64,000 nt of DNA from Nitrosomonas sp. (GCF_040240425.1 NZ_QPHG01000017.1:6806-70805), one strand, 5' to 3'; shown: positions 10,772 to 57,359, counted from the stretch's first letter. The notes: generated from the sequence alone by a model not told the origin. Numbers and translations are program-made.

Positions 10772-10777
10772 AACCGG

Positions 10778-31034: not shown

Positions 31035-31186
31035 ATACGCATCGATACTTGATAAATCGATACCATGAACCCATTTAACCTGAAACACCGGCCGGTTTTA
31101 TGGCCATGCATGAAACTTCATTTTCAGGATGGAAGCGGCAATAATGCAGACGCGCGGTAACAGCGTGATCAACGAGGGGGATTAAC

Positions 31187-32131: not shown

Positions 32132-32134
32132 GCC

Positions 32135-32452
32135 ATGCCGCATGAAATCGATGCTGTTTTACTTGAAGATGCTCTGTTCAGTTTGGATGAACTGGCGCAC
32201 AGCTGCCACGTTAGCCGGGAATGGGTCATCGAACGCGTGCAGTGGGGTTTATTGCTGAATGACGGCGTCACCGGCACCGATCCGGATGTCTGGCTATTCG
32301 ATAGCCGCAGTTTTGTGCGCGTCAAAAGAATCATCATGATTGAGCGCAACTTCGAAGGCAATCCCGAATTGGCCGGTTTGGTCGCCGATCTGATCGAAGA
32401 AATCGATTCGCTGCGCGCCCGGCTGAAAGCATCCGGATTGGATGCAGATTAA
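32135..32452 (+). CDS. cbpM: Chaperone-modulatory protein CbpM (MerR-like fold)
   Basis: About 105 aa. Position immediately after cbpA. LDELAHSCHVSREWVIERV pattern. Confidence 0.75.
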   Translation: MPHEIDAVLLEDALFSLDELAHSCHVSREWVIERVQWGLLLNDGVTGTDPDVWLFDSRSFVRVKRIIMIERNFEGNPELAGLVADLIEEIDSLRARLKASGLDAD

Positions 32453-32494
32453 GCCATATCCGTCCGATAGATAAACTACACAGGAAATCCCGCC

Positions 32495-32926
32495 ATGTCT
32501 TTACATATCGTGTGCCCGCATTGCCATGCCACCAACCGCGTACCGGCAGACCGCCTCAGCGCATCGCCTAATTGTGGTGCTTGCCACCAGCCGTTGTTTG
32601 CCGCGCAACCGATTGAGTTAATGGAGAGTCATTTCAACCGGCACATTACCAATAACGACATTCCGCTGCTGGTGGATTTTTGGGCACCGTGGTGCGGCCC
32701 CTGCCGCATGATGGCTCCAGCTTTTGCCGAAGCAGCCGCTATGCTGGAACCCGTCATGCGCCTGGCCAAAGTCAATACCGAAGAAGAACAAGGATTGGCC
32801 GCGCGGTATAACATTCGCAGTATTCCAACTTTGGTACTATTTAAAGGCGGCCGGGAAATCGCTCGGCAATCGGGCGCGATGAGCGGACACGATCTGGTAC
32901 GATGGGCACAAGTCCATAACAAATAA
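32495..32926 (+). CDS. trxC: Thioredoxin 2 with N-terminal zinc finger
   Basis: N-terminal CPHC..CGAC zinc-binding motifs and a WCGPC active site. Confidence 0.9.
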   Translation: MSLHIVCPHCHATNRVPADRLSASPNCGACHQPLFAAQPIELMESHFNRHITNNDIPLLVDFWAPWCGPCRMMAPAFAEAAAMLEPVMRLAKVNTEEEQGLAARYNIRSIPTLVLFKGGREIARQSGAMSGHDLVRWAQVHNK

Positions 32927-32957
32927 TGAAAAATAATCAACAAAGGAGCGAATATTC

Positions 32958-34112
32958 ATGCCCAACGGATTCTTTTCCCGTTTAATCTGGTACACGCTGG
33001 CCGGTGTATTGCTGGTGTTATTTTTTCACAGCTTCCTTTACCACTATTTTCCGAATATTTTTCATTTCAATCTCTTTTCCGGTCAGAACCAGCAAGAGAG
33101 CGCGGAACCACGCGTGGTTCAAGCACGCGGCAACCTGGCCGAGGATGAGAAAAGCACCATCGAATTGTTTGAAAATTCGCGCGATTCCGTAGTGTTTATC
33201 ACCACCCGGCAGCGCGTCATGGATGCGTGGTCGCGCAATATTTTTTCCGTTCCTAGCGGCACCGGCTCTGGGTTTATCTGGGATGATAGCGGGCATATCA
33301 TTACCAATCTTCACGTGGTTAAAGGCGCCAGCGAAGCCACCGTGCGTCTGGCCGACGGACGCGATTACAAGGCTTCCCTGGTCGGCGCAAGCCCGGCGCA
33401 CGACATCGCCGTGCTGAAAATCGGCATCGGCTTCCAGCGGCCAGCCCCGGTGCCGATCGGCACAAGCAACGACCTTAAGGTGGGACAAAAAGTATTCGCC
33501 ATCGGCAATCCGTTCGGTCTGGACTGGACGTTGACCACCGGCATTGTCTCCGCATTGGATCGTTCCTTACCAGGCGGAGATGGCCGCACCATCGACAATC
33601 TGATTCAAACCGATGCCGCCATTAACCCCGGCAATTCCGGCGGCCCGCTGCTCGATTCCGCCGGCCGTCTGATCGGCATCAACACCGCCATTTACAGCCC
33701 GAGCGGCGCCAGCGCCGGGATTGGCTTTGCCGTGCCGGTCGATACCGTCAACCGCGTCGTTCCGCAAATCATCAGCCGCGGCAAATATATTCGCCCGGCC
33801 ATGGGCATCACCGTCGACAGCAAACTCAATAACCGCCTGACGCAACACCTGAAAGTAACCGGCGTCGTCATCCTAAGCATCGGCCCCGGTTCCGCAGCCG
33901 ATACCGCCGGACTGATAGGCGCCGTATTGACGCCGGAAGGCAACATCATCGCCAACGACATTATCGTTGCCGTTGACGGAAAACCGATGGACTCAGTGGA
34001 AAAATTGCTGAACCGTATTGATAATTACAAGGTCGGCGACACCATCATGCTTACGGTGCTGCGCCGGGGTGAGAAAATTGAAGTGCCGGTTACACTGCAA
34101 CCGGGTGAGTGA
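32958..34112 (+). CDS. HtrA/DegS-like periplasmic serine protease with one PDZ domain
   Basis: N-terminal membrane anchor. Catalytic His, Asp and Ser motifs (TNLHVV, HDIAVLK, GNSGGPL). C-terminal PDZ. Confidence 0.85.
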   Translation: MPNGFFSRLIWYTLAGVLLVLFFHSFLYHYFPNIFHFNLFSGQNQQESAEPRVVQARGNLAEDEKSTIELFENSRDSVVFITTRQRVMDAWSRNIFSVPSGTGSGFIWDDSGHIITNLHVVKGASEATVRLADGRDYKASLVGASPAHDIAVLKIGIGFQRPAPVPIGTSNDLKVGQKVFAIGNPFGLDWTLTTGIVSALDRSLPGGDGRTIDNLIQTDAAINPGNSGGPLLDSAGRLIGINTAIYSPSGASAGIGFAVPVDTVNRVVPQIISRGKYIRPAMGITVDSKLNNRLTQHLKVTGVVILSIGPGSAADTAGLIGAVLTPEGNIIANDIIVAVDGKPMDSVEKLLNRIDNYKVGDTIMLTVLRRGEKIEVPVTLQPGE

Positions 34113-34169
34113 TATCGAGTTAATCGGGACGGATCTTACTCTTGGAAATTGCTCGCATATCTGAATCAA

Positions 34170-35714
34170 TCAGGTATCCGCTTCCTTGCTGCCCGCACCG
34201 CTCAGTATGCGCACAACCAGCTCGGATGTGGAGATGCCGGGGGTGTAGGTCAGTTCCTGAATCATCTCCGGCGGTAAGGTTTCGCACAGTTTATATTTAT
34301 CTCGGCGTTCCTGTTCCGAGGCGCAGGCGAAAGTATAAATGTCGAAGCCGTTCTGTTGCATGAATCCCGGGGTGACACTCGCGGGGGTTTCCGTCATGAC
34401 GGCGTCGACATACTTGCAGGCGGCCACGACGGCGGCGCGTTCTGCTTGCTTCATGACGGGCAATTTGCCTTTGTTTTCCACCACGCGTTCATCGGAAACC
34501 ACGCAGACCGTCAGATGCGTGCCCAATGCGCGCGCCGCACGCAAGAAACTCACATGCCCTTCATGAAACAGATCAGCCACCATGCGTGTATACACGCGTT
34601 TTTGCTGCCGATTTTTCGGCCATACGGGAATTTCCCGATTCAGGCGCGTCATGGCGCGCTCCATCCACTGCCGGCTGCGCAGTGCAAGTACGTCGTCGGG
34701 GTCCTTCAAAACAATCTGGTGCGCGTAACACCATGCTTTGGCCAAGTCTCCCAGCAGCCAGCGCTGTATCAGCCTATGGTAGGCATAGCAACGCACGAGC
34801 TGGGTAAAGTTTTCTAGGTTACAGGCGGATATCACGGTATCCCAGTTGGGATTCGGCGTGCGCCAGTCACCGTAGAATGCGGTCAGAATTCTTTCCGGCT
34901 GACGCGGAAACCAGGCTGTGCCAAAGTCTGTATCGCGCTGAGTCAGATCGAACTTGGGAAAAACCGATACCCGCTGATATTCATCGGGATAACCTGGCAA
35001 TGCAAACCCGCCCACGATCTGTTTGCCCCGAGCTTGCAGACCGCAGACATCGAGCGTAATCCCCAACTCCGGGTGCACGTAATCGCGATAATTGGCGTAT
35101 TCGATCCGCATCGGTGCACGCGCCCAGCCCGCCTGCTCCAATGCCGCACAACAAGTGTCCCAGAATTCCATTTGCACGGCGATGTCGAGATCTTTGTCGA
35201 AATCGAGTAAACACCCGTTCCGGATCAGACCCAACAGCGTGCCCGCAAAAGGAAATACCGGAATATCCTGCCGAGCTAACTCCGCACAGGTGCGCCACAG
35301 CAATTTTTCCGCTTCTCCGGAAGCGAATACATTCGCATCGGCTTGGCCGGACTTGACTTGTTCTTTTTGCGGCGGGATTTTTCCGGATTTAGCCAGCGCC
35401 ATCAGATGATTCAGCGCGTAGGTAAAATGCGCATGCGCGGTGGATAAATCCAGCAAAATAAAACTCGCGGTTCCGAGCACATGCGCCCAGTGTGCTTTGT
35501 GAAAGTCACCTTGCACATGCGCATAAATTTTTGCGGCGTATGCGGGCACATCGTCCGTCCGGCCCGTGCGCATCGCCAACGAACACCACAAGCGCGCAAC
35601 ATCTGGAGATAACGGATATTCACTTTTCAACGGTTCAAGAATTCCGTCGGCATCGTTAAATTTGCCCGCAGCGATTAATTCCTTTGCTTTCAATAATAAT
35701 TCATCGAGTTTCAT
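34170..35714 (-). CDS. Fusion protein: N-terminal helical region - LicD-like phosphotransferase - cytidylyltransferase (HxGH)
   Basis: The central FAGTLLGLIRNGCLLDFDKDLDIAV matches the LicD nucleotidyltransferase-fold DxD motif. The C-terminal VYTRMVADLFHEGHVSFLRAARALGTHLTVCVVSDE..KGK is the CCT/ECT/TagD-type cytidylyltransferase signature. Confidence 0.7.
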   Translation of the reverse strand: MKLDELLLKAKELIAAGKFNDADGILEPLKSEYPLSPDVARLWCSLAMRTGRTDDVPAYAAKIYAHVQGDFHKAHWAHVLGTASFILLDLSTAHAHFTYALNHLMALAKSGKIPPQKEQVKSGQADANVFASGEAEKLLWRTCAELARQDIPVFPFAGTLLGLIRNGCLLDFDKDLDIAVQMEFWDTCCAALEQAGWARAPMRIEYANYRDYVHPELGITLDVCGLQARGKQIVGGFALPGYPDEYQRVSVFPKFDLTQRDTDFGTAWFPRQPERILTAFYGDWRTPNPNWDTVISACNLENFTQLVRCYAYHRLIQRWLLGDLAKAWCYAHQIVLKDPDDVLALRSRQWMERAMTRLNREIPVWPKNRQQKRVYTRMVADLFHEGHVSFLRAARALGTHLTVCVVSDERVVENKGKLPVMKQAERAAVVAACKYVDAVMTETPASVTPGFMQQNGFDIYTFACASEQERRDKYKLCETLPPEMIQELTYTPGISTSELVVRILSGAGSKEADT

Positions 35715-45145: not shown

Positions 45146-45168
45146 GCACCGGTCACTTATCCCGGTGC
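45146..45168 (+). terminator. Possible terminator of sdaA, overlapping the 3' end of the convergent gene
   Basis: GCACCGG (45146-45152) pairs with CCGGTGC (45162-45168). It is followed by AATTTG, which is only partly T-rich. Confidence 0.35.
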
Positions 45169-46508
45169 AATTTGCCGATCACTGAACGCACGCCGCGCAC
45201 GACAAAGTAAACAGCAAGTACCACGACAGGAATAGCAATACCGGTCAGCAATTCGACATTGATATCCTGCCCCGCCGCTTTCAGCGCTTTCAATCCATAG
45301 CCCACGATACCCAGTAGATAGTAACTCAACACCACTACGGACAAGCCTTCCACCGTTTCTTGCATACGCAGTTGCACGTGCGCGCGATTGTCCATGGATT
45401 TCAGCAAATCCCGGATCTGCCCTTCCATCGACAAATCGACACGCGTACGCAGTAACGCCGATGCGCGGCCCAAACGGGTCGACAGCGTTTCCAGCTTGGT
45501 ATGCACCAGCTCGCACGTCCCCATCGCCGACGACAACCGCTGAATCATAAATTCTTGCAGCATCTGCAACCCTTCGATACGCTCCTCGCGCAATTCGGTA
45601 ATGCGCAACTTGACGATATCGTAATACGCTCTGGAAGCATTGAAGCGGTGGCTGGTGAGCGCCGACAAACGCTCGGTTTCCGCTGCCAGCTGGGTCAATT
45701 CATTGAGCAAGCTCTGCTCATCTTCGATGCAGGTCAGTCCGGCACTGTTTGCGGTCAATTCGGCCAGACGCTGATCAGCGCGCGCCAGTTGCGGTATGAT
45801 CTTGCGCGTCACAGGCAGCGGCAGCATCGCCAGCATGCGGTAAGTCTCGATTTCCAGCAAACGCTGCACCAGCCGTCCGACCTGGCGGCTACGCAAGTTG
45901 TCGTCATGAATCAGAATACGGCCGAAATTATCGGCATGAATCTGGTTATCGCTCCATACACTAGCCGCGCCGCCCGCCACTTTGGAGCCGATCACCGTCC
46001 CGGAAGCGAATAAATTGACCAGTTCATGCAAACTGCGTTTAGGGTGCGAGCGATCCTCCAGCGCGATATGCGTCGCCACCAGCAATTCGCCCGGCAATTG
46101 CGCCAGCCAATCCTGCGGCACATACCCAATCGCGGGATGCGCAAACGGCGTATCAAAAGGCTTGGCGCGATAAAAGGTATAGGTTGAATATTCGGTATGT
46201 CGCTCCCAGCGCAAACGAAACTCACCGCAATCCGCGCTGAAATCGTTTTCATGCGTATTTGGTGGGTTGATGCCGTAGCGCAGACATAGCTCACCCACCA
46301 GCTGACGTTCCTGGTCGACTCGGTCGCGTTCCGACAACAAGACCAAATGCGAAAGCTCAAACGGCGGCGCCAGCAACTCATACGCCACCGCGTTCAATTC
46401 GGCATGCAAATCCTGCCGTTCCGCATATTCCGGAATCGCCAGTAATTTTTCTTCGGCAAGCGCGCCTAATTCAGTGGCAATGGATGACAACGAGGCAGGG
46501 GAATCCAT
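45153..46508 (-). CDS. DUF3422/COG4949-like membrane-anchored protein
   Basis: A large soluble N-terminal region is followed by two C-terminal TM helices. This layout and length match the DUF3422 family from memory. Not verified. Confidence 0.45.
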   Translation of the reverse strand: MDSPASLSSIATELGALAEEKLLAIPEYAERQDLHAELNAVAYELLAPPFELSHLVLLSERDRVDQERQLVGELCLRYGINPPNTHENDFSADCGEFRLRWERHTEYSTYTFYRAKPFDTPFAHPAIGYVPQDWLAQLPGELLVATHIALEDRSHPKRSLHELVNLFASGTVIGSKVAGGAASVWSDNQIHADNFGRILIHDDNLRSRQVGRLVQRLLEIETYRMLAMLPLPVTRKIIPQLARADQRLAELTANSAGLTCIEDEQSLLNELTQLAAETERLSALTSHRFNASRAYYDIVKLRITELREERIEGLQMLQEFMIQRLSSAMGTCELVHTKLETLSTRLGRASALLRTRVDLSMEGQIRDLLKSMDNRAHVQLRMQETVEGLSVVVLSYYLLGIVGYGLKALKAAGQDINVELLTGIAIPVVVLAVYFVVRGVRSVIGKLHRDK

Positions 46509-46633: not shown

Positions 46634-46664
46634 AAAAAAGATCAACGTTCAAAGAACGTTGATC
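46634..46664 (-). terminator. Intrinsic-terminator-like hairpin reading on the minus strand, inside a divergent intergenic region
   Basis: The plus strand reads AAAAAA-GATCAACGTTC-AAA-GAACGTTGATC. On the minus strand this is an 11-bp perfect stem with a 3-nt loop, followed by TTTTTT. Confidence 0.6.
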
Positions 46665-46830
46665 GACTAACATTCAGGAAGATACTACGTACTACGCAGC
46701 GAGTCTAGCACGGCAATTGTGAAGGTTTTGTGAGAACAAAAATGACGATGGCCTTGATCAATCGCCCGTGATTCCGTGTAAAAATCCTGCGGTATAGTAG
46801 AATTCCGCAAGCTCACTCACCGGAAACAAC

Positions 46831-49686
46831 ATGCCATCCACCGCGCCTTCAATCCTTGCCCGCTATCTGGACAGAGTCATCCAGGACAACAAAGCCATCG
46901 ATGCGCGCGGCGTCATGCAGGTAAACCGCATGATCGAACTGTCAATGGACGATGTATTTATCAACCTGACGGTGCGCATGAACCACTCGGACAAACCGCA
47001 AGCGCTACGCGACCGGCTCGAACGGGAAAACTTTCCGGTTCGTGAATCAATGCCGGAGGTAGCAGACATTCCGGAACATTTCTATCCTCAGCGTGTGGAA
47101 ACCGAACAAGGTGTTCCCACCGATGCGCTCTGGCAACGCCATGCCGCCTGGGTAATCCTGGGTGATCCGGGTGCGGGCAAAACCACGTTGCTGAAGCACT
47201 TCGCGTTGCAGGAAGCAACTACTTGCAAAACCGATCCGGGTTCCGGCTATTTGCCAGTTTTCGTGCCGCTACGTTTGCTCGGCCAGAAGCTGGAAAATCA
47301 TATGCACTGGCCGCAGGAACAAGCCCTATTGGAATATCTGACGCAATACGGCTTCAGCGAAATGGGTTTTACCGCTGAGCAGGAACGGCTGGAATTGCGC
47401 GCGCAATTTGAAACCTGGTTGTCGGACGGCCGCGTGCTGTGGTTGCTCGATGGACTGGACGAACAGCGCGATCAGCATGTGCAGAAACGCACCGTGCAAG
47501 CCATCGAAGCGCTGCGTCAATATTACCCCGGCAATCGCTTCGTCGTCACCTCGCGCATCGTCGGTTACGACGCCGCGCCGCTCGGCGGCGGGTTCAACAC
47601 CGCCACGCTGGAGCCTTTCAACGACGAGCAAATGAGTCAATTTTTCCAGCGTTGGTGCTACGCGGTAGAAAAAAGCGAAGACATCGTGGACGACGAACAC
47701 ACATTCAAACGCGCCGATGAAAAAGCCGCGCAATTGCTCGAGCAAATCAAACATAATCCCGGCATCCGCTTACTCGCCGCCAACCCGCTGCTGTGCACCA
47801 TCATCGGCCTGATCCAGCGCCAGGGCGCGACGTTGCCGGAACTGCGCGTAGAGCTTTACAAGCTGTGCATCGACACGTTCATTTTCAATTGGGAAATAAA
47901 AAAACGCCAGCGCAACGATCAAACCGGCAGTCTGGATAAAGATCAGACGCAGGCCGTATTGGAAGAAATCGCGTTGCAGTTGCACGAAAACTATCCGGAA
48001 AACCGCATCCCGCGCAAGCAACTGACTGGCATCGTCAGCCAGTTTCTGACCACGCAGCAAGGCATGGCAGAAAGCGAAGCGGAGCACAAAGCCGATCAAC
48101 TGCTGAACCTGATCCGCGATGTATCCGGCTTACTGATCGACCGCGGCAACGAAGAATTCGGCTTTTTCCATCTGACTTTCCAGGAATACCTCGCTGCGCG
48201 CGCCATCACGCGCAAAAAACGCGATATCGACCGCTACCTGAGTCGTTATCTGTTCGAGCCGCGCTGGCGCGAAGTGATCCGACTGGCCGCTGCGCATGCG
48301 GGCACGAAAGACGAGGAATCCGGTAGCGAATTCATCGAAGCCATCCTGCGTCAGAAGCATCCGCGCGACGATCTGATGCACTACACTTTCCGCTTCGCCT
48401 TTCTATGCCTGAAAGAAGCCAAAGTGGAACTGGAAACCGCCGACCGGATGTTTCGCCAGTGGATTGAATATTTCATCAGTGAAGCAGCAACCCGGGGATT
48501 ATTTCTGCAACTGCTCCGGCAACCTGGTGCAAGAATCCGCTATCGTTCAAATACACTGCAAATATTGATTATGACTCTCGCAGATAAAAACTTGGCTGTT
48601 CGCCGGATGATAGCCGAGGCACTGGGGAAAATCGGTGATAAAGCCGCTGTCGATCCGCTGATCCATTGCCTTAAAGATGAAAATTCAAGAGTTCGCTGGA
48701 CGACAGCATGGGCGCTGGGAGCAATCGGCGACAAAGCTGCTGTCAATCCACTGATTCATTCCCTTAAGGATGAAAATTCAGGTGTTCGCAGGATAGCAGC
48801 CGAGGCGCTGGGAGCAATCGGCGACAAAGCCGCTATCGAGCCACTGATCCATTCCCTTAAGGATGAAAATTCAGATGTTCGCAGGATAGCAGCCGAGGTA
48901 CTGGGAAAAATCGGCGACAAAACCGCTGTCGAGCCACTGATCCATTCCCTTAAGGATGAAAATTCAGATGTTCGCAGGATAGCAGCCGAGGTACTGGGAA
49001 AAATCGGCGACAAAGCCGCTATCGAGCCACTGATCCATTCCCTTAAGGATGAAAATTTTATTGTTTGCTGGACGGCAGCCGAGGCGCTGGGAGCAATCGG
49101 CGACAAAACCGCTATCGAGCCACTGATCCATTCCCTTAAGGATGAAGATTCAAATGCTCTCTGGTCGGCAGCCAAGGCACTGAGGGAAATCGGCGACAAA
49201 GCCGCTGTCAATCCACTGATCCATTCCCTTAAGGATGAAGATTCAAATGTTCGCTGGTCGGCAGCCAAGGCACTGAGGAAAATCGGCGACAAAGCCGCTG
49301 TCGAGCCACTGATCCATTCCCTTAAGGATGAAGATTCACATGTTCGCCAGATGGCAGTCGAGGCACTGGGAGAAATCGGCGATAAAGCCGCTGTCGAGCC
49401 ACTGATCCATGCCCTTAAGGATGAAGATTCAAATGTTCGTTGGATGACAGCTAAGGTGCTGGGAAAAATCGGTGATAAAACCGCTGTCGATCCACTGATC
49501 CATTCCCTTAAAGACGAAGGTCCGGCTGTTCGCTTGACGGCCGCCAAGGCACTGGGGAAAGTCGGCGATAAAGCCGCTGTCGATACACTGATCCATGCTC
49601 TTCAGGATGATTATTCAGATGTTCGCCGGACGGCACTACAAGCTATCGAAGAAATTGATTTGGGATACGCTCTATGTCCAGACTGA
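46831..49686 (+). CDS. NACHT-family STAND NTPase with C-terminal HEAT (PBS-lyase type) repeat array
   Basis: Walker A GDPGAGKTTLLK (47161-). Walker B VLWLLDGLDE (about 47437-). Conserved pre-NACHT N-terminal segment (RYLDRVI..IDARGV). Twelve 31-aa VRxxAAxALGxIGDKAAVxPLIHSLKDE units at the C-terminus. No recognisable effector domain. Confidence 0.85.
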   Translation: MPSTAPSILARYLDRVIQDNKAIDARGVMQVNRMIELSMDDVFINLTVRMNHSDKPQALRDRLERENFPVRESMPEVADIPEHFYPQRVETEQGVPTDALWQRHAAWVILGDPGAGKTTLLKHFALQEATTCKTDPGSGYLPVFVPLRLLGQKLENHMHWPQEQALLEYLTQYGFSEMGFTAEQERLELRAQFETWLSDGRVLWLLDGLDEQRDQHVQKRTVQAIEALRQYYPGNRFVVTSRIVGYDAAPLGGGFNTATLEPFNDEQMSQFFQRWCYAVEKSEDIVDDEHTFKRADEKAAQLLEQIKHNPGIRLLAANPLLCTIIGLIQRQGATLPELRVELYKLCIDTFIFNWEIKKRQRNDQTGSLDKDQTQAVLEEIALQLHENYPENRIPRKQLTGIVSQFLTTQQGMAESEAEHKADQLLNLIRDVSGLLIDRGNEEFGFFHLTFQEYLAARAITRKKRDIDRYLSRYLFEPRWREVIRLAAAHAGTKDEESGSEFIEAILRQKHPRDDLMHYTFRFAFLCLKEAKVELETADRMFRQWIEYFISEAATRGLFLQLLRQPGARIRYRSNTLQILIMTLADKNLAVRRMIAEALGKIGDKAAVDPLIHCLKDENSRVRWTTAWALGAIGDKAAVNPLIHSLKDENSGVRRIAAEALGAIGDKAAIEPLIHSLKDENSDVRRIAAEVLGKIGDKTAVEPLIHSLKDENSDVRRIAAEVLGKIGDKAAIEPLIHSLKDENFIVCWTAAEALGAIGDKTAIEPLIHSLKDEDSNALWSAAKALREIGDKAAVNPLIHSLKDEDSNVRWSAAKALRKIGDKAAVEPLIHSLKDEDSHVRQMAVEALGEIGDKAAVEPLIHALKDEDSNVRWMTAKVLGKIGDKTAVDPLIHSLKDEGPAVRLTAAKALGKVGDKAAVDTLIHALQDDYSDVRRTALQAIEEIDLGYALCPD
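48577..49683 (+). repeat. Tandem array of twelve 93-bp coding repeats (HEAT-like units), the last one truncated
   Basis: Exact 93-bp periodicity, e.g. CTGATCCATTCCCTTAAGGATGA recurs at 48844 and 48937. The units starting at 48844 and 48937 differ at only 2 of 93 nt. Confidence 0.95.
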
Positions 49687-51374
49687 ATCTATTGGGCGAT
49701 CAACCTGCCCGGATTGATTCCGATTGTCTGTATTTCCAGCGTTATTTAACCGCTCTTGAAACGGCGGTGCTGAACCGCGATGATCATGCACCGTTCGTTA
49801 CTGGCATCTTCGGCCAGTGGGGTAGCGGCAAATCCACGTTGCTCGGCATGCTGGAAAACAGGCTTAATGAGCTAAATGTGGATACCGCGAATGATCCATC
49901 GAAGTGGGTAATCATCAAATTCTCCCCCTGGCTATACAGCCAGGAAGAATCCTTGCTAGTGCCGCTGTTAGCTTTACTGGCACAGCAAGAAAACGCTTTC
50001 AAGCCATTGATCAAGAAAATGACGGAAACCTCCATGCGATTTCTCAAACGCACTTCCGCGACATTAGACTTCGACAGGCTCGGCATGCCGTTGAAAATTT
50101 CACTGAATAATCTCGCCGAGAAAAACAGTGACAACCGGTTTTTCCACGAAGAAATCGCTGCCGCGATCAAAACCATTACCGGGAAAAAGCGACTGGTTTT
50201 CCTGATCGACGATCTCGATCGCTGCCACGATCCGGCGCAAATCGTCCATCTGCTCGAGCAAATCAAGCTGTTTCTGCATCTCGACGGCTGTCTGTTTTTT
50301 ATCGCAGCGGACCGCAAGCAGGTGGTGGATGCTATCGATAAAACTTTTCCCGGTTCCGGCGCAGCGTATCTGGAAAAATTCGTGCAACTGGCTTTCGACT
50401 TGCCGCCGCATCACAGCGAGGATTTGGTTCGGATGCTGCCGTCCGCGGATGCGGAAACTTTGCGCGCTTACCGGCCGCTGTGCGAGGTGCTCGGCAATAA
50501 CCCGCGCAAGCTGAAATTGATCTGGAATGAAGCGGTGCTGCGGATGGCGATCCTGAAGGAGGAATTGCACACCAATCCGCAAACCAGACAACATACACCG
50601 GATTTGAATCTGTTGCTGCGCTGGTTGTTGATCCGCAACCGGGGAGAATTGGCAAAAAATCCGTACCGCTATTTGGAATTTGAGCGGCGCAAGAAAACCG
50701 CCGATGCGGCGGCACTGGAACAACTGCGGGAAGAATTTATCCGCAGGTTGCAGTTTAAGGATAAAAAGGGCCAATGGCGGAGCGACGAAGATCAGCGTTT
50801 GGCGGTCTTTTTATGGAACCGGCTCGATCAAGATGGATTTCATCACCCGGCAATCCTCACGCTGTACGCCCGCGCCAGCGGAACGGATACTTATTTTTCG
50901 CGCAATCTGCTGGAAAATGCCTGTTTTACCGGTGGCAATGAGGCGCAATTCAATGAACGGGATTTTAATTATGCCGATCTGTCCGGCGGGTATTATCCCG
51001 GCGCGGTGTTCAACCACTGCGATTTCACCGGCGCGGATTTTCGCCACAGCATCCTTAACGGAGCGCAATTCGCCGATTGCGATTTATCCGGCGTGTGTTT
51101 CGATCAGGCCGAACTGAGCGGTATCACGTGGGAAAATTGCCGTGGTTTAAATGCACTCGATACCGAGCCGATCCTGTATGAGCAAATCATCGATCAGGCC
51201 GAGGAACAGCATTGGCAAATTACTCAACCCAATATCGATATTGCCATTAGCCTGATGAAAGCCTACAAGGCCATTTTGGATAAACATGCTGAGAATAAAT
51301 CACTGGCCAGCGCCATCGAATCGCGCCTGAACGAAAAAGCCCGGCAACTCAGAGCCAAGATTTACCCGCAGTAA
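49674..51374 (+). CDS. KAP-family P-loop NTPase fused to C-terminal pentapeptide repeats
   Basis: The start overlaps the NACHT stop by 13 nt. KAP signatures are GIFGQWGSGKSTLL (Walker A), FSPWLY, LVFLIDDLDRC, YLEKFVQLAFDLP and NPRKLK. The C-terminal ADLSGGYYPGAVFNHCDFTGADFRHSILNGAQFADCDLSGVCFDQAELSG is a pentapeptide repeat (about 50953-51150). No TM insertion is visible. Confidence 0.8.
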   Translation: MSRLNLLGDQPARIDSDCLYFQRYLTALETAVLNRDDHAPFVTGIFGQWGSGKSTLLGMLENRLNELNVDTANDPSKWVIIKFSPWLYSQEESLLVPLLALLAQQENAFKPLIKKMTETSMRFLKRTSATLDFDRLGMPLKISLNNLAEKNSDNRFFHEEIAAAIKTITGKKRLVFLIDDLDRCHDPAQIVHLLEQIKLFLHLDGCLFFIAADRKQVVDAIDKTFPGSGAAYLEKFVQLAFDLPPHHSEDLVRMLPSADAETLRAYRPLCEVLGNNPRKLKLIWNEAVLRMAILKEELHTNPQTRQHTPDLNLLLRWLLIRNRGELAKNPYRYLEFERRKKTADAAALEQLREEFIRRLQFKDKKGQWRSDEDQRLAVFLWNRLDQDGFHHPAILTLYARASGTDTYFSRNLLENACFTGGNEAQFNERDFNYADLSGGYYPGAVFNHCDFTGADFRHSILNGAQFADCDLSGVCFDQAELSGITWENCRGLNALDTEPILYEQIIDQAEEQHWQITQPNIDIAISLMKAYKAILDKHAENKSLASAIESRLNEKARQLRAKIYPQ

Positions 51375-51497
51375 ATTTAACCTTTCCGCGATCAGTACAA
51401 TTTTCACGACGATCTGTGTATCATAAGCCCGAATATAACCAGTCTTTGATGCATTCCGATTTTTATAACCGATAAACCAGATCAATAAGGAAAAACG

Positions 51498-51959
51498 ATG
51501 GGTGCTATTTTCTTTTATATTTTTATCTATTTCATTGGATACTACGCTTCCAATGTGCTGAACATGCTGACGGTACGGCCGTTGGTCACCAACCGCTACA
51601 TGGCGGCATTGGTGCCGGTTTACGGTTTTGCGTTCGGGCATGCCTACATGGTCGTCACCAAACCACTGCCGGCAGGCGCGGACATTTCAATGGAATACGC
51701 GTTGCTGGTGTTCATCACGCTGCCGGTTGTGGTGGTAACCGTGGGCGCGGCTTATTTCATGTGGAACAGTAAGGGTAAGGAAGAACACTCTGACAATCAG
51801 TCCGCAGCCAATAACCAGGAATCTACAGAAGCTGTTGCCGCCGAGGCCGCTGGCGATAGCGGCGAACCAAGAACGGAAAACCCAGCCGGTGCTGCCGGAT
51901 CATCCGAAACACCATCCGCGACAGACAGTGCTAAAAACAAAGACAGCAAGGACGCTTAG
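51498..51959 (+). CDS. Small membrane protein (about 3 TM) with a disordered acidic, Ser/Ala-rich C-terminal tail
   Basis: AAGGA lies 6 nt before the ATG. Three hydrophobic helices are followed by a low-complexity tail (SDNQSAANNQESTEAVAAEAAGDSGE..). No hairpin is visible between this gene and the KAP gene. Confidence 0.55.
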   Translation: MGAIFFYIFIYFIGYYASNVLNMLTVRPLVTNRYMAALVPVYGFAFGHAYMVVTKPLPAGADISMEYALLVFITLPVVVVTVGAAYFMWNSKGKEEHSDNQSAANNQESTEAVAAEAAGDSGEPRTENPAGAAGSSETPSATDSAKNKDSKDA

Positions 51960-52004: not shown

Positions 52005-52039
52005 CCCTCATACCTGCAACTCCGGTATGAGGGTTTTTT
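52005..52039. terminator. Strong bidirectional rho-independent terminator
   Basis: AAAA-CCCTCATACC (52005-52014), loop, GGTATGAGGG (52024-52033), then TTTTTT. Confidence 0.9.
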
Positions 52040-52076: not shown

Positions 52077-52553
52077 TTATGATTCTCTGTCGACGATCAC
52101 ATGCTCCTTCTGCGCGCTGAGTGTGCCTTGTTCAATGATCGCCAGCGTTAAGCGCGAAATCGCCACGCGCTTGCCGGTCGCTTCCTCGATGATGTCCGTC
52201 TGCCAGACTTGGGTACGGCGGCCGGTATGCAAGGGTGTGCAAATGCCGATGACATGGCCCTTGGTTACTGCGCGGATGTGATTGATATTCAACTCCAGCC
52301 CGACTGCGCGGTATTTTTCCGGGTCGATGGTCATCCAGCCGGAGACGCTGCCAAGTGTTTCCGATAGCACGCAACTGGCGCCGCCATGCAGGATCCCGAA
52401 CGGTTGCGTGGTGCGTTTATCGACCGGCATGCGCGCTTTGAGAAAGTCAGCCCCAAGCTCGGTGAATTGAATGCCGATATGTTCCCCCATATTGGCGTTG
52501 CGCAATCCTTCCAGATACTCGACGGTGTAATCTTTAAACCAAATTGCACTCAT
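52077..52553 (-). CDS. PaaI/YbdB-type hotdog-fold thioesterase
   Basis: GILHGGASCVLSETLGS motif. About 158 aa. Confidence 0.8.
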   Translation of the reverse strand: MSAIWFKDYTVEYLEGLRNANMGEHIGIQFTELGADFLKARMPVDKRTTQPFGILHGGASCVLSETLGSVSGWMTIDPEKYRAVGLELNINHIRAVTKGHVIGICTPLHTGRRTQVWQTDIIEEATGKRVAISRLTLAIIEQGTLSAQKEHVIVDRES

Positions 52554-52675: not shown

Positions 52676-54094
52676 TTATCTTTTCACCAGCGCTTTTATC
52701 AAATAATCCCGCAGCATGACGAGTGAAGAAAATTCCCGCGGTCTGATCACCCTCGTTTGGTCTTCTTTCCAATCCGCGTAGATTAGACCGACCTTACTGT
52801 TATTGGATATCAGCGGAAGCAAAATAAATGCACAGGCATCCGGCAATGCTTCTCGATACCAAGCAGGTATCGTGGTTTCTCTGCTGAGAGTCACATCCTG
52901 AATAAACACATCGGCTTTCTGCGCCAGGGATAAATGAAATACATCCGCAGCATAGTTCTTGGAGAAGCAAAGTTGCGCCATCGTTTCCGGCTTCAGATTG
53001 CCACAATACAAGCTCGCCTTAAACTGATCTGCGTCACGAAAAAACACAATTACCCGATTAAACCGCATGCTGTCATGGATCGTTTCCAATGCAATGTTGA
53101 GCGCGCTTTTAAAATCCATTCCCCGGGCCAGTGCAGTGCTCAATTCGAGCAAGCCAGCTGCAACTCGTTTGCGCGACCGATCCGATTCGCTATTCCCCTG
53201 TTCCAGTTCCGGATAAGCGGCCAATTGGCTCTTTTTATTCTGGATCGGCTCAATCGATCCCCAGATCACTTCGCTTGGCAGCAGCAACGATCCGCTATAG
53301 CGCGCAATAAAATTTTTCAGATTCTGGGTACTGATATTGTTAACCAATAATGTCGCCATTTTTCCTGAAAAATTGGCCATGGTTTTCAACCAGCCGGCAG
53401 AACCCAACTCAGGATTCATATTGTCCGTTAGGTCAGTAACACTGCCGGAAATTTTTTCGGGCAATTGCCAATCCTTGGCAATATTGTGCGAAATTTCATC
53501 AATGGTCATACCAAAAACTTTCAATGCAGCGTCATTTTCACGCGCTTCATCGCCCCCCGCAATCTGCTGAATCCTCGCCCATTCATCGGGAAAGTAAAAA
53601 ACCAGAACAAGCCGTCCGAGATGGTGCAATTGCGTGCAAACAATAGCTTCTTCTCCATTCGCAACATACGATTGAGCCACGATATTGCGCGCAATATTAC
53701 TCGCTAAAACCGCTTTTTCCAGCTCGCCCGATACCGTTCCGGGTTCTAATTTTGCTGCCGAGGGCGTATCAATGGTTCGTATATTGAGCGCAATGTTGGT
53801 AATCGTATCCAGGCCCAACACCACCACCGCATGAGAAACGGTCGTCACTTCACTGTCCGCTTTGGAATACAACCCAGAATTGGCCAGTTTGATGATTTTC
53901 TGGGTTAGGGTGAAATCGCTTAAGATGGCATTGGCAATGCCTGCAATGTTTCTTCCCTTATCCTGTATTAATTGCCTGATGTTTTGAATGGATTTGGATA
54001 ACGCCGGAAAATCACCCTTCTCATTTATTCTTCTTTCTAGTTGTGCAAAAAAATCAGCCTGATTGTGTTCAAATGCGGAGGTTAATGTTGTCAT
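52676..54094 (-). CDS. HDOD + GAF-like domain signalling protein (paralog A)
   Basis: N-terminal HDOD (FPALSKSIQNIRQL..DFTLTQKIIKLANS..QLHHLGRL). C-terminal GAF-like region (FNRVIVFFRD...LLPLISNNSKVGLIYADW). It aligns end to end with 54295..55722. Confidence 0.75.
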   Translation of the reverse strand: MTTLTSAFEHNQADFFAQLERRINEKGDFPALSKSIQNIRQLIQDKGRNIAGIANAILSDFTLTQKIIKLANSGLYSKADSEVTTVSHAVVVLGLDTITNIALNIRTIDTPSAAKLEPGTVSGELEKAVLASNIARNIVAQSYVANGEEAIVCTQLHHLGRLVLVFYFPDEWARIQQIAGGDEARENDAALKVFGMTIDEISHNIAKDWQLPEKISGSVTDLTDNMNPELGSAGWLKTMANFSGKMATLLVNNISTQNLKNFIARYSGSLLLPSEVIWGSIEPIQNKKSQLAAYPELEQGNSESDRSRKRVAAGLLELSTALARGMDFKSALNIALETIHDSMRFNRVIVFFRDADQFKASLYCGNLKPETMAQLCFSKNYAADVFHLSLAQKADVFIQDVTLSRETTIPAWYREALPDACAFILLPLISNNSKVGLIYADWKEDQTRVIRPREFSSLVMLRDYLIKALVKR

Positions 54095-54294
54095 ACTTTA
54101 TAAAGTTCTTAAAATATTCGAATTCTTCCGGTTTATCAAAGCAATATCTTTACGATCATTCCCCCGGACAACCCTTGCAATCCTTGGTGCTGAGTTATTC
54201 GCGCGGTACTTTCATACCCAAAATACTGGCGGTCAGTGTGTATTAAATTAATTTCAGTGTAGTGTTAACCAAAATGAATGTTCTGAGAAATGCG

Positions 54295-55722
54295 TCATTT
54301 TCTTTTAATCAAAGCTTTCATCAAATAATCCCTGAGCACACCCATCGATGTGAATTCGCGGGGTTCGATCTGATTGGTTGTTCCCGTGCACCAGTCAGCG
54401 TAGATCAAACCGATGGCCTTGCCATTGAAAATCAGCGGCAGCAGGATAAAAGCATCGACATCCGGCAAAGTCTCCCTTAACCATGCCGGTATACTTGAAG
54501 AAGACTGGGTTGAAGCAACATCCTGGATAAATACATCCGCTTTATTGGTAAGCGAAAGATGGAATACATCGGCTGCATAGGCTTCGGGAAAAATCAATCC
54601 GGGTAACACTTCCGGCACACCGCGGCCAAACCCGACTTTGGCCTTTAACATGCCTGCGTCGCGAAAGAAGGTCGCCACGCGATTAAAGCTCATGCTTGCA
54701 TACAACGATTCAAGCATCATGCTCAATGCGACATTGAAGTCTATGCCCTGCACCAGCGCCATCTTGAGCTCACGAACACTGACAGCCAGACGTTCGCGCG
54801 AATCATAGGGCTTGCCAATGGATTTTCCGCTTTCCGGATTACTAGGAAATTCAGCAGCCATCTGCTGCGCCAAATCAATCGATTCAGCAAGATCCTCGGT
54901 GGAAATCAGTAATGATTCGCTATAACGTGACACATACTGTTTTAAATCATCCGCGTTGCACTGCTGAGCTAACAGCGATGCAGCGCCACTGGCAAAATTA
55001 GCCATCACCTTCAGCCAATCGGACGAACCCGGTATGCTAATTTCCGTGAAGGTTGCCGAGCTGATCATGCAATGGGATATTTTCTTGGGCAAATGCCAGT
55101 TCCTGGCAATTTCTTGGGACATCTCATCGATAGAAATGCCAATGACTCGCAACGCCGCGTCGTTTTCACTAATCGCATCGCTTTGCGCAATTTTCTGAAT
55201 TCGCGACCATTCATCAGGAAAATAAAATATCAGCATCAGACGGCCAAGATGATGCAGCAATGCGCACACAACGGCTTCTTCACCGTTGACCATATTTAAT
55301 TTTGTCACCACGTTGCGAACGATACTTCCAGCCAGCATTGCTTGCGCCAGTTCTCTGCGCGCCTCGTCCGATGCCGGTGCGGAAGCTGAAAGCGTATCGA
55401 TGAAACGGATACTGAGGGTGATATGCGCTATGGTATCGATGCCAAGCACAACAGCAGCTTGGGTGATAGTTGTAATTTCTCCGCCCATTCCGGAATACAT
55501 GGCAGAGTTGGCCAAACGAATCACTTTCTGAGTCAAAGTGAAATCATTCAAAATCACACGGGCAATATCCGCGATATTTTTATTTTGATCGTGCATCAAC
55601 TCGTCCAGTTGCTGCACGGATTTTGCAAAGGCAGGAAAATCGCCTTTCTCGCTCATACGTTTTGTCAGCAAAGCGAGAAATTGCTCTTTGCTGTTCACAA
55701 GCTCCAAAGCAGATACCGTCAT
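54295..55722 (-). CDS. HDOD + GAF-like domain signalling protein (paralog B)
   Basis: Same architecture as paralog A. The start overlaps the stop of the GGDEF-EAL gene by 4 nt. Confidence 0.75.
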   Translation of the reverse strand: MTVSALELVNSKEQFLALLTKRMSEKGDFPAFAKSVQQLDELMHDQNKNIADIARVILNDFTLTQKVIRLANSAMYSGMGGEITTITQAAVVLGIDTIAHITLSIRFIDTLSASAPASDEARRELAQAMLAGSIVRNVVTKLNMVNGEEAVVCALLHHLGRLMLIFYFPDEWSRIQKIAQSDAISENDAALRVIGISIDEMSQEIARNWHLPKKISHCMISSATFTEISIPGSSDWLKVMANFASGAASLLAQQCNADDLKQYVSRYSESLLISTEDLAESIDLAQQMAAEFPSNPESGKSIGKPYDSRERLAVSVRELKMALVQGIDFNVALSMMLESLYASMSFNRVATFFRDAGMLKAKVGFGRGVPEVLPGLIFPEAYAADVFHLSLTNKADVFIQDVASTQSSSSIPAWLRETLPDVDAFILLPLIFNGKAIGLIYADWCTGTTNQIEPREFTSMGVLRDYLMKALIKRK

Positions 55723-57359
55723 GCCATGTATTTCTCTTTAAATGCATCCGAATGCACCGGCCTGCCGGTCAAATAGCCTTGTACCAGATTGCATCCTTCC
55801 TGCCTCAAGAAACCCAATTGCGCATCATTTTCCACACCCTCGGCGACGACCAGCAGATTCAATCCTTCCGCTAGACTCAGAATGGTGCCCACAATCGCCA
55901 TATCTTCCGCGCTGTTCACCACGTCATCTACAAAAGACTTATCAATCTTCAGCACGGACAGCGGAAATCTTTTCAAATAAGCCAATGAGGAATAACCGGT
56001 ACCAAAATCATCAATCGCGATTTTTACTCCCGCCACATGCAGCTGCGTCAGAACCGCGCCGGAACGCTGCGGGTTCTCCATTAACACGCCTTCGGTGATT
56101 TCCAGCATGAGGTTTCCCGGTAATAATCCGGACTCGTTTAGCGCTTTATGAATCATATCGAGAAAATCCTCTTGGACAAATTGGCGCGGGGATACATTCA
56201 CGGAGATATAAAAATCCTTAAGACCAGCTTCCTGCCATTGTTTAGCTTGGTAGCACGCGCTACGCAAAGCCCATGCGCCGAGAATTTTTATCAAACCGCT
56301 GTTTTCCGCGAGCGGAATAAACTTCATCGGCGAAACAAAGCCCCGGCTTGGATTTTGCCATCGCATCAACGCTTCCGCGCCCTTCAATTGACCGGTTTGC
56401 GTGCAAAAGATCGGTTGATAGTGCAGCATGAACTCACCATTTTCGATCCCCTCGTACATGGCCGATTCCAGCGACAAATCGCTTCTTTCGGTATCGTCAA
56501 CCTGATCGCTATAAACCTTCCAGTAATTCTTACCTTGCGCTTTCGCTCTGTACATCGCCATCTCGGCATTCCGGTACAAGAGAGAAGCGTCTTCGCCATG
56601 TTCCGGATACATGGAAACTCCCAAACTGGCGCTGATATGCAGTGTATGTTCACCAATGCGGAAAGACCGTTGCATAGCGGCTAAAATCTTCCTGGCAATC
56701 AATTCGATATTTTCCCGCCCCGCACTCAGCATGATCATGGAAAATTCATCATCACTGACACGCGCCACTGTATCGCTGCGCCGCACGCAATTTTGCAGCC
56801 GTTCCGCTACTGCCTTGATCAGCTCGTCACCGATACCATGTCCCAGCAAATCGTTAATTTTTCTATAGCCATCCAAGCTCAACACAATCAACGACAAGAC
56901 ATTCTTTTCCCGCTGCGCCGCTTGAATGTTCATGGCAATACGATCGTCGAGTAAGACTTTGCCCGGCAATCCAGTCAAGGCATCGTGCGTGGAGAGGTAA
57001 ACCAGGCGGCTTTCGCTATCCTTCCAGTGCGTAGCATCAAATGCCGCGATAAGATATTTATCCTCCGGCAAAGCATGCATGTAGCAGTCAACCCAAACCG
57101 GCAGTACGCGCTGCCGTAGAAGACGGCAGATGAAAGTTTGTTTCTCACCACTCTGTTTGGCTTTTTCCCGCGCTTCAACAAACATTGCCATATCTTCAGG
57201 TTGAATGAATAATTCAATAGATTCTTGCAATAACTCTGCCGGTAATTGCAAAAATGCCTGCGAAGGTTTGGATGCTTGCTCAATGACGCCGTGCGCATTT
57301 ATGCACACCGCAAAGTCACTGATACAGGAAAGCAAATCGAAAGAGGCATGCGGATTCAC
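55719..57359 (-). CDS. PAS - degenerate GGDEF - EAL protein (probable c-di-GMP phosphodiesterase)
   Basis: The GGDEF site reads SDDEF, which is degenerate. The EAL domain is intact (EALMRWQNP, DDFGTGYSSLAYLK, KIDKSF, EGVE). Confidence 0.85.
   Translation of the reverse strand: MNPHASFDLLSCISDFAVCINAHGVIEQASKPSQAFLQLPAELLQESIELFIQPEDMAMFVEAREKAKQSGEKQTFICRLLRQRVLPVWVDCYMHALPEDKYLIAAFDATHWKDSESRLVYLSTHDALTGLPGKVLLDDRIAMNIQAAQREKNVLSLIVLSLDGYRKINDLLGHGIGDELIKAVAERLQNCVRRSDTVARVSDDEFSMIMLSAGRENIELIARKILAAMQRSFRIGEHTLHISASLGVSMYPEHGEDASLLYRNAEMAMYRAKAQGKNYWKVYSDQVDDTERSDLSLESAMYEGIENGEFMLHYQPIFCTQTGQLKGAEALMRWQNPSRGFVSPMKFIPLAENSGLIKILGAWALRSACYQAKQWQEAGLKDFYISVNVSPRQFVQEDFLDMIHKALNESGLLPGNLMLEITEGVLMENPQRSGAVLTQLHVAGVKIAIDDFGTGYSSLAYLKRFPLSVLKIDKSFVDDVVNSAEDMAIVGTILSLAEGLNLLVVAEGVENDAQLGFLRQEGCNLVQGYLTGRPVHSDAFKEKYMA

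Follow-up and report, generated by a model that had tools for sequence, protein, structure and literature searches.

This locus raises the question of what two overlapping genes, each encoding a large P-loop nucleoside triphosphatase (NTPase) of a different family, do together in a bacterium. Both lie in a 64,000-nucleotide (nt) stretch of DNA from Nitrosomonas sp. (GCF_040240425.1, NZ_QPHG01000017.1:6806-70805), referred to here as the window and numbered from its first letter. Gene A encodes a NACHT NTPase with a C-terminal HEAT array, and gene B encodes a KAP NTPase that carries pentapeptide repeats; a small gene, C, follows. An initial reading made from the DNA alone (the sequence-only reading) had taken the block as a two- or three-gene conflict system resembling the nucleotide-binding leucine-rich repeat (LRR) receptors, or NLRs. 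Synteny and an empty chromosomal site uphold the two-gene A-B unit of that proposal; the membership of gene C does not stand. The two genes are as follows.

46831 to 49686, plus strand: gene A, a NACHT-HEAT NTPase of 951 residues (open reading frame (ORF) call; Pfam NACHT and HEAT_2)
49674 to 51374, plus strand: gene B, a soluble KAP NTPase of 566 residues with a pentapeptide beta-helix and a helical C-terminus (ORF call; Pfam)

The product of gene B is on record as hypothetical protein DU481_08365 of a Nitrosomonas sp. metagenome-assembled genome (MAG), an exact protein match. The stop of A and the start of B overlap by 13 nt at 49674-49686 (CTATGTCCAGACTGA), which indicates translational coupling. 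This overlap between two P-loop NTPase genes, already noted in the sequence-only reading, is confirmed in the sequence and conserved across lineages: its length is 13 nt in betaproteobacterial loci, against 4 nt (ATGA or GTGA) in gammaproteobacterial and Methylocaldum loci, and the lineages share an invariant GG 10-12 nt ahead of the B start. A B-family profile scan of species-representative genomes returned 64 loci. Wherever a near-full-length B was accompanied by upstream DNA (L002-L015 and L018, with B identities of 34-88%), an A ortholog ends at the B start. These paired loci belong to three further Nitrosomonas genomes, one Nitrosomonas-like MAG labelled 'Proteobacteria' (L003), five Gallionella, one Gallionellaceae, Sideroxydans, a MAG labelled Blackallbacteria, a gammaproteobacterium, Methylocaldum, and Planctomycetaceae. 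Synteny of the A and B homologs across genomes, proposed earlier as a check on the pairing, therefore holds, from Nitrosomonas to Planctomycetaceae, wherever a locus allowed the test.

The pair is also confirmed in independent assemblies through gene calls with precomputed Pfam annotation, and two homolog tables place about 21 B-family and A-family proteins on longest contigs of identical size. At one contig edge (L081), a B of 36% identity is overlapped by 4 nt by a fragment of a HEAT-like upstream gene. Pairwise distances of the A NACHT module and of B are strongly correlated (Mantel r 0.94, permutation p 0.0002, 13 loci), a co-divergence that also tracks species relatedness. We consider it very probable that A and B constitute one two-gene unit; as established by genome comparison, they are co-inherited, translationally coupled, and present or absent together between related genomes.

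Joint presence or absence is seen at the corresponding site of Nitrosomonas ureae, whose closed genome (CP013341) contains the 4HBT gene, a C ortholog (63% identity), the DUF3422 gene, and a serine dehydratase gene, with A and B absent. The 416-nt spacer of N. ureae aligns to window positions 46635-46749 and 51394-51497. Since homology breaks at about 46749 and about 51394, A and B together represent an indel of about 4.65 kb, spanning approximately 46750-51394. The boundaries of this cassette and its neighbours are listed below.

45153 to 46508, strand opposite to A, B, and C: DUF3422 gene, left flank (gene call)
46750 to 46830, plus strand: left end of the cassette, the 5' leader of gene A and presumed promoter region (N. 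ureae homology stops at about 46749)
51375 to 51394, plus strand: right end of the cassette (N. ureae spacer homology resumes at about 51394)
51498 to 51959, plus strand: gene C, 153 residues (ORF call)
52077 to 52553, strand opposite to A, B, and C: 4HBT thioesterase gene, right flank (gene call)

The block is bracketed by opposite-strand housekeeping genes, as had been read, with DUF3422 on the left and 4HBT on the right, and five Nitrosomonas-type loci have the same flanking genes as the window. No mobility gene was found inside the cassette, and a consensus scanner called no consensus sigma-70 promoter in the gene A leader (46750-46830). Only a 6-nt GACGAT, seen by eye, occurs near both boundaries and may be a matter of chance. 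Outside Nitrosomonas, the flanks of A-B differ from lineage to lineage and the distribution is patchy across phyla. The pair is flanked by VapBC-type PIN pairs and HicB/PIN in Gallionellaceae and Sideroxydans, and by housekeeping genes in the gammaproteobacterium. One metagenomic contig has Fic, MNT/HEPN-like, Phd/PIN, RelB/ParE, and EVE genes and two insertion sequence (IS) elements around the pair, a second has integrase fragments beside it, and a third has a methylase-Mrr/iREase gene and phage-like genes beside the locus; Phd/YefM is also among the toxin-antitoxin (TA) types found next to A-B. A place in the conserved core of related genomes, which would have spoken against a conflict system, is not what these comparisons give: A-B is accessory, being absent from the N. 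ureae site and set among variable flanks.

Gene C had been put forward as a third component and described as a protein with three transmembrane (TM) helices. A hydropathy scan with a 19-residue window lacks three clear hydrophobic stretches, those present starting at about residue 3 and about residues 64-72. No terminator between B and C was seen by sequence reading or by the consensus scanner. Gene C is preceded by conserved DNA of its own, persists in N. ureae at the site without A and B, and is absent from all non-Nitrosomonas A-B loci examined. The three-gene version is rejected on these grounds, and C is regarded as a resident Nitrosomonas gene.

The architecture of gene A is that of an NLR-like protein with a repeat sensor and the following parts, all on the plus strand.

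46831 to 47115, plus strand: residues 1-95, short pre-NACHT segment of helix, strand, and disordered linker (no Pfam match; AlphaFold2 (AF2) model)
47116 to 48564, plus strand: residues 96-578, NACHT nucleotide-binding and winged-helix/helical domains (Pfam, conserved motifs)
47161 to 47187, plus strand: Walker A (translation)
47443 to 47463, plus strand: Walker B, DGLDE (translation)
48565 to 49683, plus strand: residues 579-951, twelve 31-residue HEAT units of the PBS/alphaRep type, presumed ligand-binding solenoid

Pfam NACHT (PF05729) matches residues 108-276 with 38.5 bits against a cut-off of 26.7, and HEAT_2 and HEAT_PBS score 406 and 246 bits. The Walker A sequence GDPGAGKTT (residues 111-119) fits GxxxxGK[ST]. 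Walker B is LLDGLDE (residues 205-211 from the translation), in which D-G-L-D-E at 207-211 fits D[GAS]hDE, the Walker B signature that defines the NACHT clade (Kibby et al.). Columns G111, P113, G114, G116, K117, T119, and D207 are invariant across 37 homologs. Pfam and the translation confirm A as the NACHT protein with these two motifs and twelve HEAT units that had been described. In a whole-chain Foldseek search, the AF2 model of A (predicted local distance difference test (pLDDT) 84.2, predicted template modelling score (pTM) 0.74) aligns to NOD2, NLRP3, and NAIP/NLRC4.

No effector domain was found before residue 91 by Pfam, PADLOC, or NCBIfam profiles or in the AF2 structure, in agreement with the short conserved pre-NACHT segment reported from the sequence. 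The model has just a helix (8-20), a strand (47-51), and a disordered linker (53-90) ahead of the NACHT domain, so that no effector is concealed there. The absence of an effector is not a special trait of A, as it had seemed. A belongs to a large NACHT clade of more than 2,000 matches, with HEAT or FGE-sulfatase C-termini and the same short N-terminus throughout, and the N-terminal motif YL..V...lDxRGvmQV is conserved across the whole clade. Nitrosomonas orthologs have two unrelated allele types of the linker at residues 53-95 (46987-47115), and its synonymous divergence (dS) is unequal between strain pairs (1.47 vs 0.21), a pattern that suggests recombination between A alleles.

The HEAT array is visible in the DNA as a tandem repeat of 93 nt with 11.2 copies and 85% matches at 48597-49635. 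In a PDB sequence search it matches artificial alphaRep binders with E values down to 1e-124, and its 31-residue repeat is about 45-56% identical to alphaRep in structure alignments. Whether units of the array or close orthologs are compared, most variation falls on unit positions 11, 14, 15, 18, and 22, which are the x positions in DENSxVRxxAAxALGxIG. We take these to be the concave-face positions that are randomised in alphaRep libraries. The number of units is polymorphic among A orthologs of about 90% identity, giving proteins of 805-957 residues. The HEAT region is frame-broken in several MAGs (among L005, L006, L009, L018, and L072).

Gene B joins a KAP NTPase to a C-terminal module of two parts.

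49674 to 50573, plus strand: residues 1-300, KAP P-loop domain (Pfam, motifs, AF2 model)
49812 to 49838, plus strand: Walker A (motif)
50202 to 50225, plus strand: Walker B, LIDDLDRC (motif)
50499 to 50516, plus strand: NPRKLK (motif)
50574 to 50930, plus strand: residues 301-419, helical linker domain (secondary structure of the model)
50931 to 51158, plus strand: residues 420-495, about 15 pentapeptides forming a four-coil right-handed beta-helix (Pfam, PDB profiles, model)
51159 to 51371, plus strand: residues 496-566, C-terminal domain of three helices, which evolves fastest within B (AF2 model)

KAP_NTPase (PF07693) matches residues 27-258 with 122.6 bits against a cut-off of 20, and Pentapeptide (PF00805) scores 47 bits against 20.2. 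The motifs GQWGSGKST, LIDDLDRC, and NPRK(LK) are invariant across 58 homologs, the invariant columns being W49, G50, G52, K53, I178-C184, N276-R278, and K281, and the assignment of B to the KAP family by these motifs holds. KAP proteins commonly, though not universally, have transmembrane helices inserted in the NTPase domain. B was said to lack this insertion, and indeed no window of B, or of A, reaches the hydropathy threshold; the place of the insertion is taken by a segment (residues 121-152) that is disordered in the AF2 model (pLDDT 85.6, pTM 0.77). Foldseek relates the NTPase part of B to Orc/Cdc6, the heptameric RADAR ATPase RdrA, plant NLRs including the helpers NRC2/NRC4, and BrxC.

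The statement that B ends in pentapeptide repeats has to be amended. The four coils, whose strands are spaced about every 20 residues in the model, are followed by a conserved three-helix domain (499-513, 521-540, and 546-563). A PDB profile search matches Np275/276, MfpA, QnrB1, and HalA to the pentapeptide segment only (E down to 1e-23), and Foldseek aligns the repeat part with MfpA. The core F/L/C positions of the beta-helix are conserved and its surface positions are variable (19-45% conserved); the net charge of the segment ranges from -11 to +4 among orthologs, with a mean of -5.2 and a value of -8 in the window copy. The C-terminal domain (496-566) is 63-77% identical among Nitrosomonas orthologs, with a ratio of nonsynonymous to synonymous divergence (dN/dS) of up to 0.55. 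In an exhaustive profile search the strict B family is small, comprising roughly 25-30 clusters at 50% identity, and KAP-plus-pentapeptide fusions of other lengths are numerous. In the cultured N. oligotropha Nm75 (L004 1965-3661), the B reading frame is broken in two near residue 379. The frame breaks in copies of A and B are either genuine decay of an accessory module or assembly error at the 93-nt repeats.

The two genes share a pattern of selection. The dN/dS is 0.10-0.13 in the NACHT part and 0.07-0.20 in the KAP part, about 0.53 in the HEAT array of A, and 0.24-0.55 in the pentapeptide and C-terminal regions of B, as compared with 0.01-0.04 in the flanking core genes DUF3422 and 4HBT. 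In both proteins it is the C-terminal region that evolves fast. Both A and B, judged from these ratios and the alignments, keep intact motifs for NTP binding and hydrolysis and are under purifying selection.

Several characterised systems resemble one or the other protein. The bNACHT proteins (Kibby et al.) share with A the NACHT module, the D[GAS]hDE Walker B, a winged-helix domain, a C-terminal HEAT repeat sensor, and the NLR-like architecture. bNACHT01, however, is a single gene outside an operon and most bNACHT proteins have an N-terminal effector, whereas A lacks one and is obligately coupled with the gene of an NTPase from another family; clade 14 of the bNACHT proteins defends with no known effector (Kibby et al.). 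The Avs proteins are also STAND NTPases with a C-terminal helical-repeat sensor, and their logic is protein ligand binding followed by oligomerisation. They are single polypeptides with N-terminal effectors, in contrast to A with its HEAT sensor and NACHT-clade NTPase; A was rejected as an Avs because PADLOC gave zero Avs models and an effector domain is absent. A is likewise not EruA (NCBIfam NF058535, a NACHT antiphage protein), the match being 45.5 bits against a cut-off of 1000 bits and confined to residues 91-132; the literature found under the name 'EruA' concerns just an unrelated E. coli regulator. The alphaRep binders and the PBS-HEAT proteins (CpcE/F, NblB, YibA) have the 31-residue repeat with variable positions on one helix, but the array of A is fused to a NACHT NTPase, and a phycobilin-lyase role does not apply since the A-B hosts are not phototrophs.

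B resembles the KAP anti-phage proteins PifA, QatA, PDC-S20, and EF_KAP (PMC13552941) in joining a KAP P-loop domain to a variable C-terminal region. It differs from them in being soluble, in its beta-helix and helical C-terminus, in having no QatBCD nearby, and in its coupling to a NACHT gene. Identification of B as PifA was rejected because the PADLOC match spans only model positions 14-267 of 720. The Qat system (QatABCD) was likewise rejected: B reaches 91 of the 600 bits that NCBIfam QatA requires, and around it lie A, C, DUF3422, and 4HBT. With Qnr, MfpA, and AlbG, B shares a right-handed quadrilateral beta-helix of A(D/N)LXX-type repeats that is acidic on average. Unlike them it is a 566-residue NTPase with about four embedded coils, conserves neither surface nor charge, and has NCBIfam Qnr/MfpA scores (17.5-25.4 bits) far under the cut-offs of 240-500. 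On these grounds B was not classed as a Qnr/MfpA-type DNA mimic, and the DNA-mimic, gyrase-directed output once suggested for it gains no support.

Plant sensor/helper NLR pairs and the animal NAIP-NLRC4 offer a likeness to the pair as a whole, consisting of two co-encoded NTPase receptors, one of which is without its own output; Foldseek places the B NTPase near the helpers NRC2/NRC4 and A near NAIP/NLRC4. A and B nevertheless belong to different NTPase families, NACHT and KAP, with no evolutionary link to paired NLRs, so that the likeness is an analogy only. PADLOC and NCBIfam scans of A, B, and C gave no named system and only domain-level partial matches: PifA, QatA, and PDC-S20 on the KAP part of B (the N-terminal 260-300 residues or so) and HEAT-containing models on A. 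A literature search found no paper combining NACHT, KAP NTPase, and pentapeptide. The pair is not described in a 2026 survey of the signal transduction ATPases with numerous domains (STAND), in Kaur et al., in Kibby et al., in the DGR paper, in the serine-recombinase paper, or in DefensePredictor, nor was it found in further literature searches on KAP, pentapeptide, and anti-phage. These searches agree with the sequence-only reading, which did not recognise the pairing as a named system, and the NLR-like layout claimed for it is supported. By the sources searched, A-B looks like a previously undescribed variation on the bacterial NLR-like systems.

KAP and NACHT genes are paired in other ways as well. 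In Crenothrix and Verrucomicrobiaceae the order is reversed: a KAP gene (about 440 residues, no pentapeptides) comes first, and a NACHT-LRR gene of 855-910 residues begins after a spacer of 3 nt (L027 9974-13864 and L033 9896-13963), and tblastn gives the same order in a Methylococcales MAG (L028, about 10001-12654). This is apparently a second undescribed KAP/NACHT pairing. Elsewhere, a KAP-only relative of B overlaps a gene for a 720-residue WD40 beta-propeller (L082 4272-8061). The Acaryochloris plasmid pREC4 (L080 6007-7952) has pentapeptide repeats in a gene of their own, downstream of a KAP gene and beside an integrase, so that KAP and pentapeptide are also linked as split genes. The NACHT-HEAT protein P0146 (L074 935-4415), 35% identical to A, has a DUF922 gene 10 nt downstream and no KAP gene there, making DUF922 a possible alternative partner in the KAP slot; a NACHT-FGS relative stands alone, without a KAP neighbour. 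The short N-terminus found throughout the clade and the DUF922 gene in the downstream slot of the KAP gene both fit a logic in which the downstream gene serves as the output.

These features can be combined into a working model of how the pair may act. The alphaRep-type HEAT solenoid of A would bind a protein ligand on its variable concave face, and the bound ligand would free the NACHT module for NTP binding and oligomerisation, as in NLRs and Avs. The signal would then be handed to the co-translated partner B, since A has no effector domain of its own. B would be a ring-forming KAP NTPase whose variable C-terminal module, the beta-helix and the helical domain, executes or gates the response. 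The C-terminus of B evolves like a recognition surface, and B may accordingly be a second sensor rather than an executor. We put at about even the chance that A-B is a self-contained, horizontally mobile module of two cooperating signalling NTPases, an NLR-type conflict system in which A signals to B; whether its function is indeed conflict with phages or mobile elements is similarly balanced. A more elaborate version, in which NACHT-HEAT rings recruit or license the KAP ring as in a sensor/helper pair, the beta-helix is a new non-enzymatic effector that blocks, for example, a DNA- or nucleotide-handling enzyme, and the KAP/NACHT-LRR, KAP/WD40, and KAP/pentapeptide pairs form the same class, is considerably more speculative and seems quite unlikely.

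A conflict role is favoured by the presence/absence polymorphism, the patchy cross-phylum distribution, the TA and IS neighbours, and the selection pattern. Both families have a record in defence: bNACHT proteins protect against phage and require the Walker A lysine to do so (Kibby et al.), and KAP NTPases with diverse C-terminal fusions protect against phage in a manner that requires both Walker B and the C-terminal region (PMC13552941). Other observations weigh against this role. Enrichment beside known defence genes, which had been suggested as a check, was not found: the 143 neighbour ORFs of 11 loci, a small sample with no background rate, contained only 9 PADLOC families at E<=1e-8, namely mad2, mad3, mad8, SoFic, three PDC candidates, and two RT-Protease_XI models. 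Ten large neighbour ORFs had zero PADLOC matches; half of them are housekeeping genes by Pfam (Tex, MnmG, a thiamine pyrophosphate enzyme, a TrkA-type channel, and a flavin adenine dinucleotide oxidase) and the other five have no Pfam match. The atp operon appears, from gene sizes only, to lie downstream in two loci (L009 and L010). A full-length B homolog is absent from the plasmid and phage collections searched, and no toxic or enzymatic effector is recognisable in A or B by Pfam, PADLOC, or NCBIfam. The strict B family is, besides its small size, confined to environmental lineages. The frame-broken HEAT arrays of several MAG copies and the frame-shifted B of the isolate Nm75 count on the same side, as does the dependence of A/B co-divergence on species relatedness, on account of which it does not prove physical interaction.

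Several of these objections would be natural if A-B were a non-immune signalling or assembly module that monitors or scaffolds an endogenous complex or a stress state. Mostly housekeeping immediate neighbours without enrichment of defence genes, the absence of a toxic domain from both proteins, and purifying selection on both genes all agree with such a role, as do the occurrence of HEAT_PBS repeats in phycobilin lyases and the degradation protein NblB and the restriction of the hosts mainly to chemolithoautotrophs and methylotrophs of similar habitats. We nevertheless hold it to be possible but on the whole unlikely, given that A-B is present or absent at the same chromosomal site between close relatives, that its flanks change with each lineage and include TA, IS, or integrase genes in several, and that it is scattered patchily over phyla. 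Accelerated evolution falls precisely at the putative binding surfaces, repeat number is polymorphic, and the NACHT and KAP families each have validated anti-phage members. The opposite simplification, that A and B are independent single-gene systems which merely stand side by side, draws on the existence of single-gene NACHT and single-gene KAP defence proteins and of distant members of the A clade without a KAP neighbour. Adjacency in every testable locus down to 34% identity, the conserved coding overlap, the co-divergence (r 0.94), and the joint gain or loss at the N. ureae site leave this account hardly credible.

The division of labour between the two proteins may also differ from that of the A-to-B model. 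B could be the primary sensor through its variable C-terminus, as reported for PifA, with A as co-sensor, regulator, or scaffold and with NTP-dependent assembly or an unlinked host factor as the output. The C-terminal regions of B evolve about as fast as the HEAT array of A, the corresponding variable region is required in characterised KAP defence proteins (PMC13552941), and the coupling of KAP also to NACHT-LRR and WD40 repeat genes suggests KAP as the constant core; bNACHT clade 14, moreover, defends without a known effector (Kibby et al.). HEAT arrays with restricted hypervariable positions are, on the other hand, classic binders, and the distant NACHT-HEAT relative with DUF922 in the same close downstream slot fits a downstream output, so that this arrangement is doubtful. 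Very doubtful is the further proposal in which A senses, B is a B-DNA-mimic effector that poisons gyrase or topoisomerase, and the membrane protein C is a third component. In its favour, B has true pentapeptide repeats, alignable with MfpA and QnrB1, whose mean net charge is acidic (-5.2), and a terminator between B and C was not seen. Yet C is kept at the N. ureae site without A and B and is missing in all other lineages, and the beta-helix has only about four coils. The surface of B (19-45% conserved), its charge (-11 to +4 among orthologs), and its NCBIfam Qnr/MfpA scores (about 17.5-25.4 bits vs cut-offs of 240-500) do not fit a mimic either, and a fast-evolving C-terminus resembles a recognition surface more than the imitation of an invariant DNA.

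The surroundings of the cassette have features of their own. The strong terminator placed at 52005 in the sequence-only reading is seen as a hairpin with a T-run at 52005-52039, between the convergent genes C and 4HBT and outside the cassette; the consensus terminator scanner did not pick it up, likely because of its 9-nt loop. In the spacer upstream of DUF3422 there is an inverted repeat at 46640-46664 (GATCAACGTTC AAA GAACGTTGATC; perfect over 11 bp with a 3-nt spacer), bordered by an A-run and a T-run, which could be an operator or a minus-strand terminator. It is kept in the N. ureae empty site and is thus part of the resident intergenic region and not of the cassette. On the right, window positions 52676-57359 hold two tandem HDOD paralogs (472 and 475 residues, 50% identical) and, behind them with an overlap of 4 nt, a GGDEF-EAL gene. 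N. ureae has no HDOD genes at this place, and there GGDEF-EAL directly adjoins 4HBT, so the block next to the A-B/C locus is variable too. Farther away, ARAGORN called a 74-nt tRNA-Ser(tga) on the minus strand at 33570-33643, inside a 384-residue plus-strand ORF and within a region (30000-35000) of raised G+C content (0.53-0.59 vs about 0.49 elsewhere). An Rfam scan of the window gave zero RNA-element matches, and without an Rfam tRNA match at that position the call is probably spurious.

The usual description of bacterial NLR-like receptors is of single proteins with their own effector, a picture that the A-B operon would change. If the proposed A-to-B signalling is true, bacteria would also divide sensing and execution between two NTPases, like the paired or helper NLRs of plants and animals, and the poorly understood KAP NTPases and pentapeptide repeats would gain a defined role. 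The HEAT array of A is a natural alphaRep-type scaffold with a clear hypervariable face, which brings the search for ligands and the exchange of specificities within experimental reach. At 4.65 kb the cassette is small, and it is self-contained and has a natural empty-site control, so that its function is directly testable.

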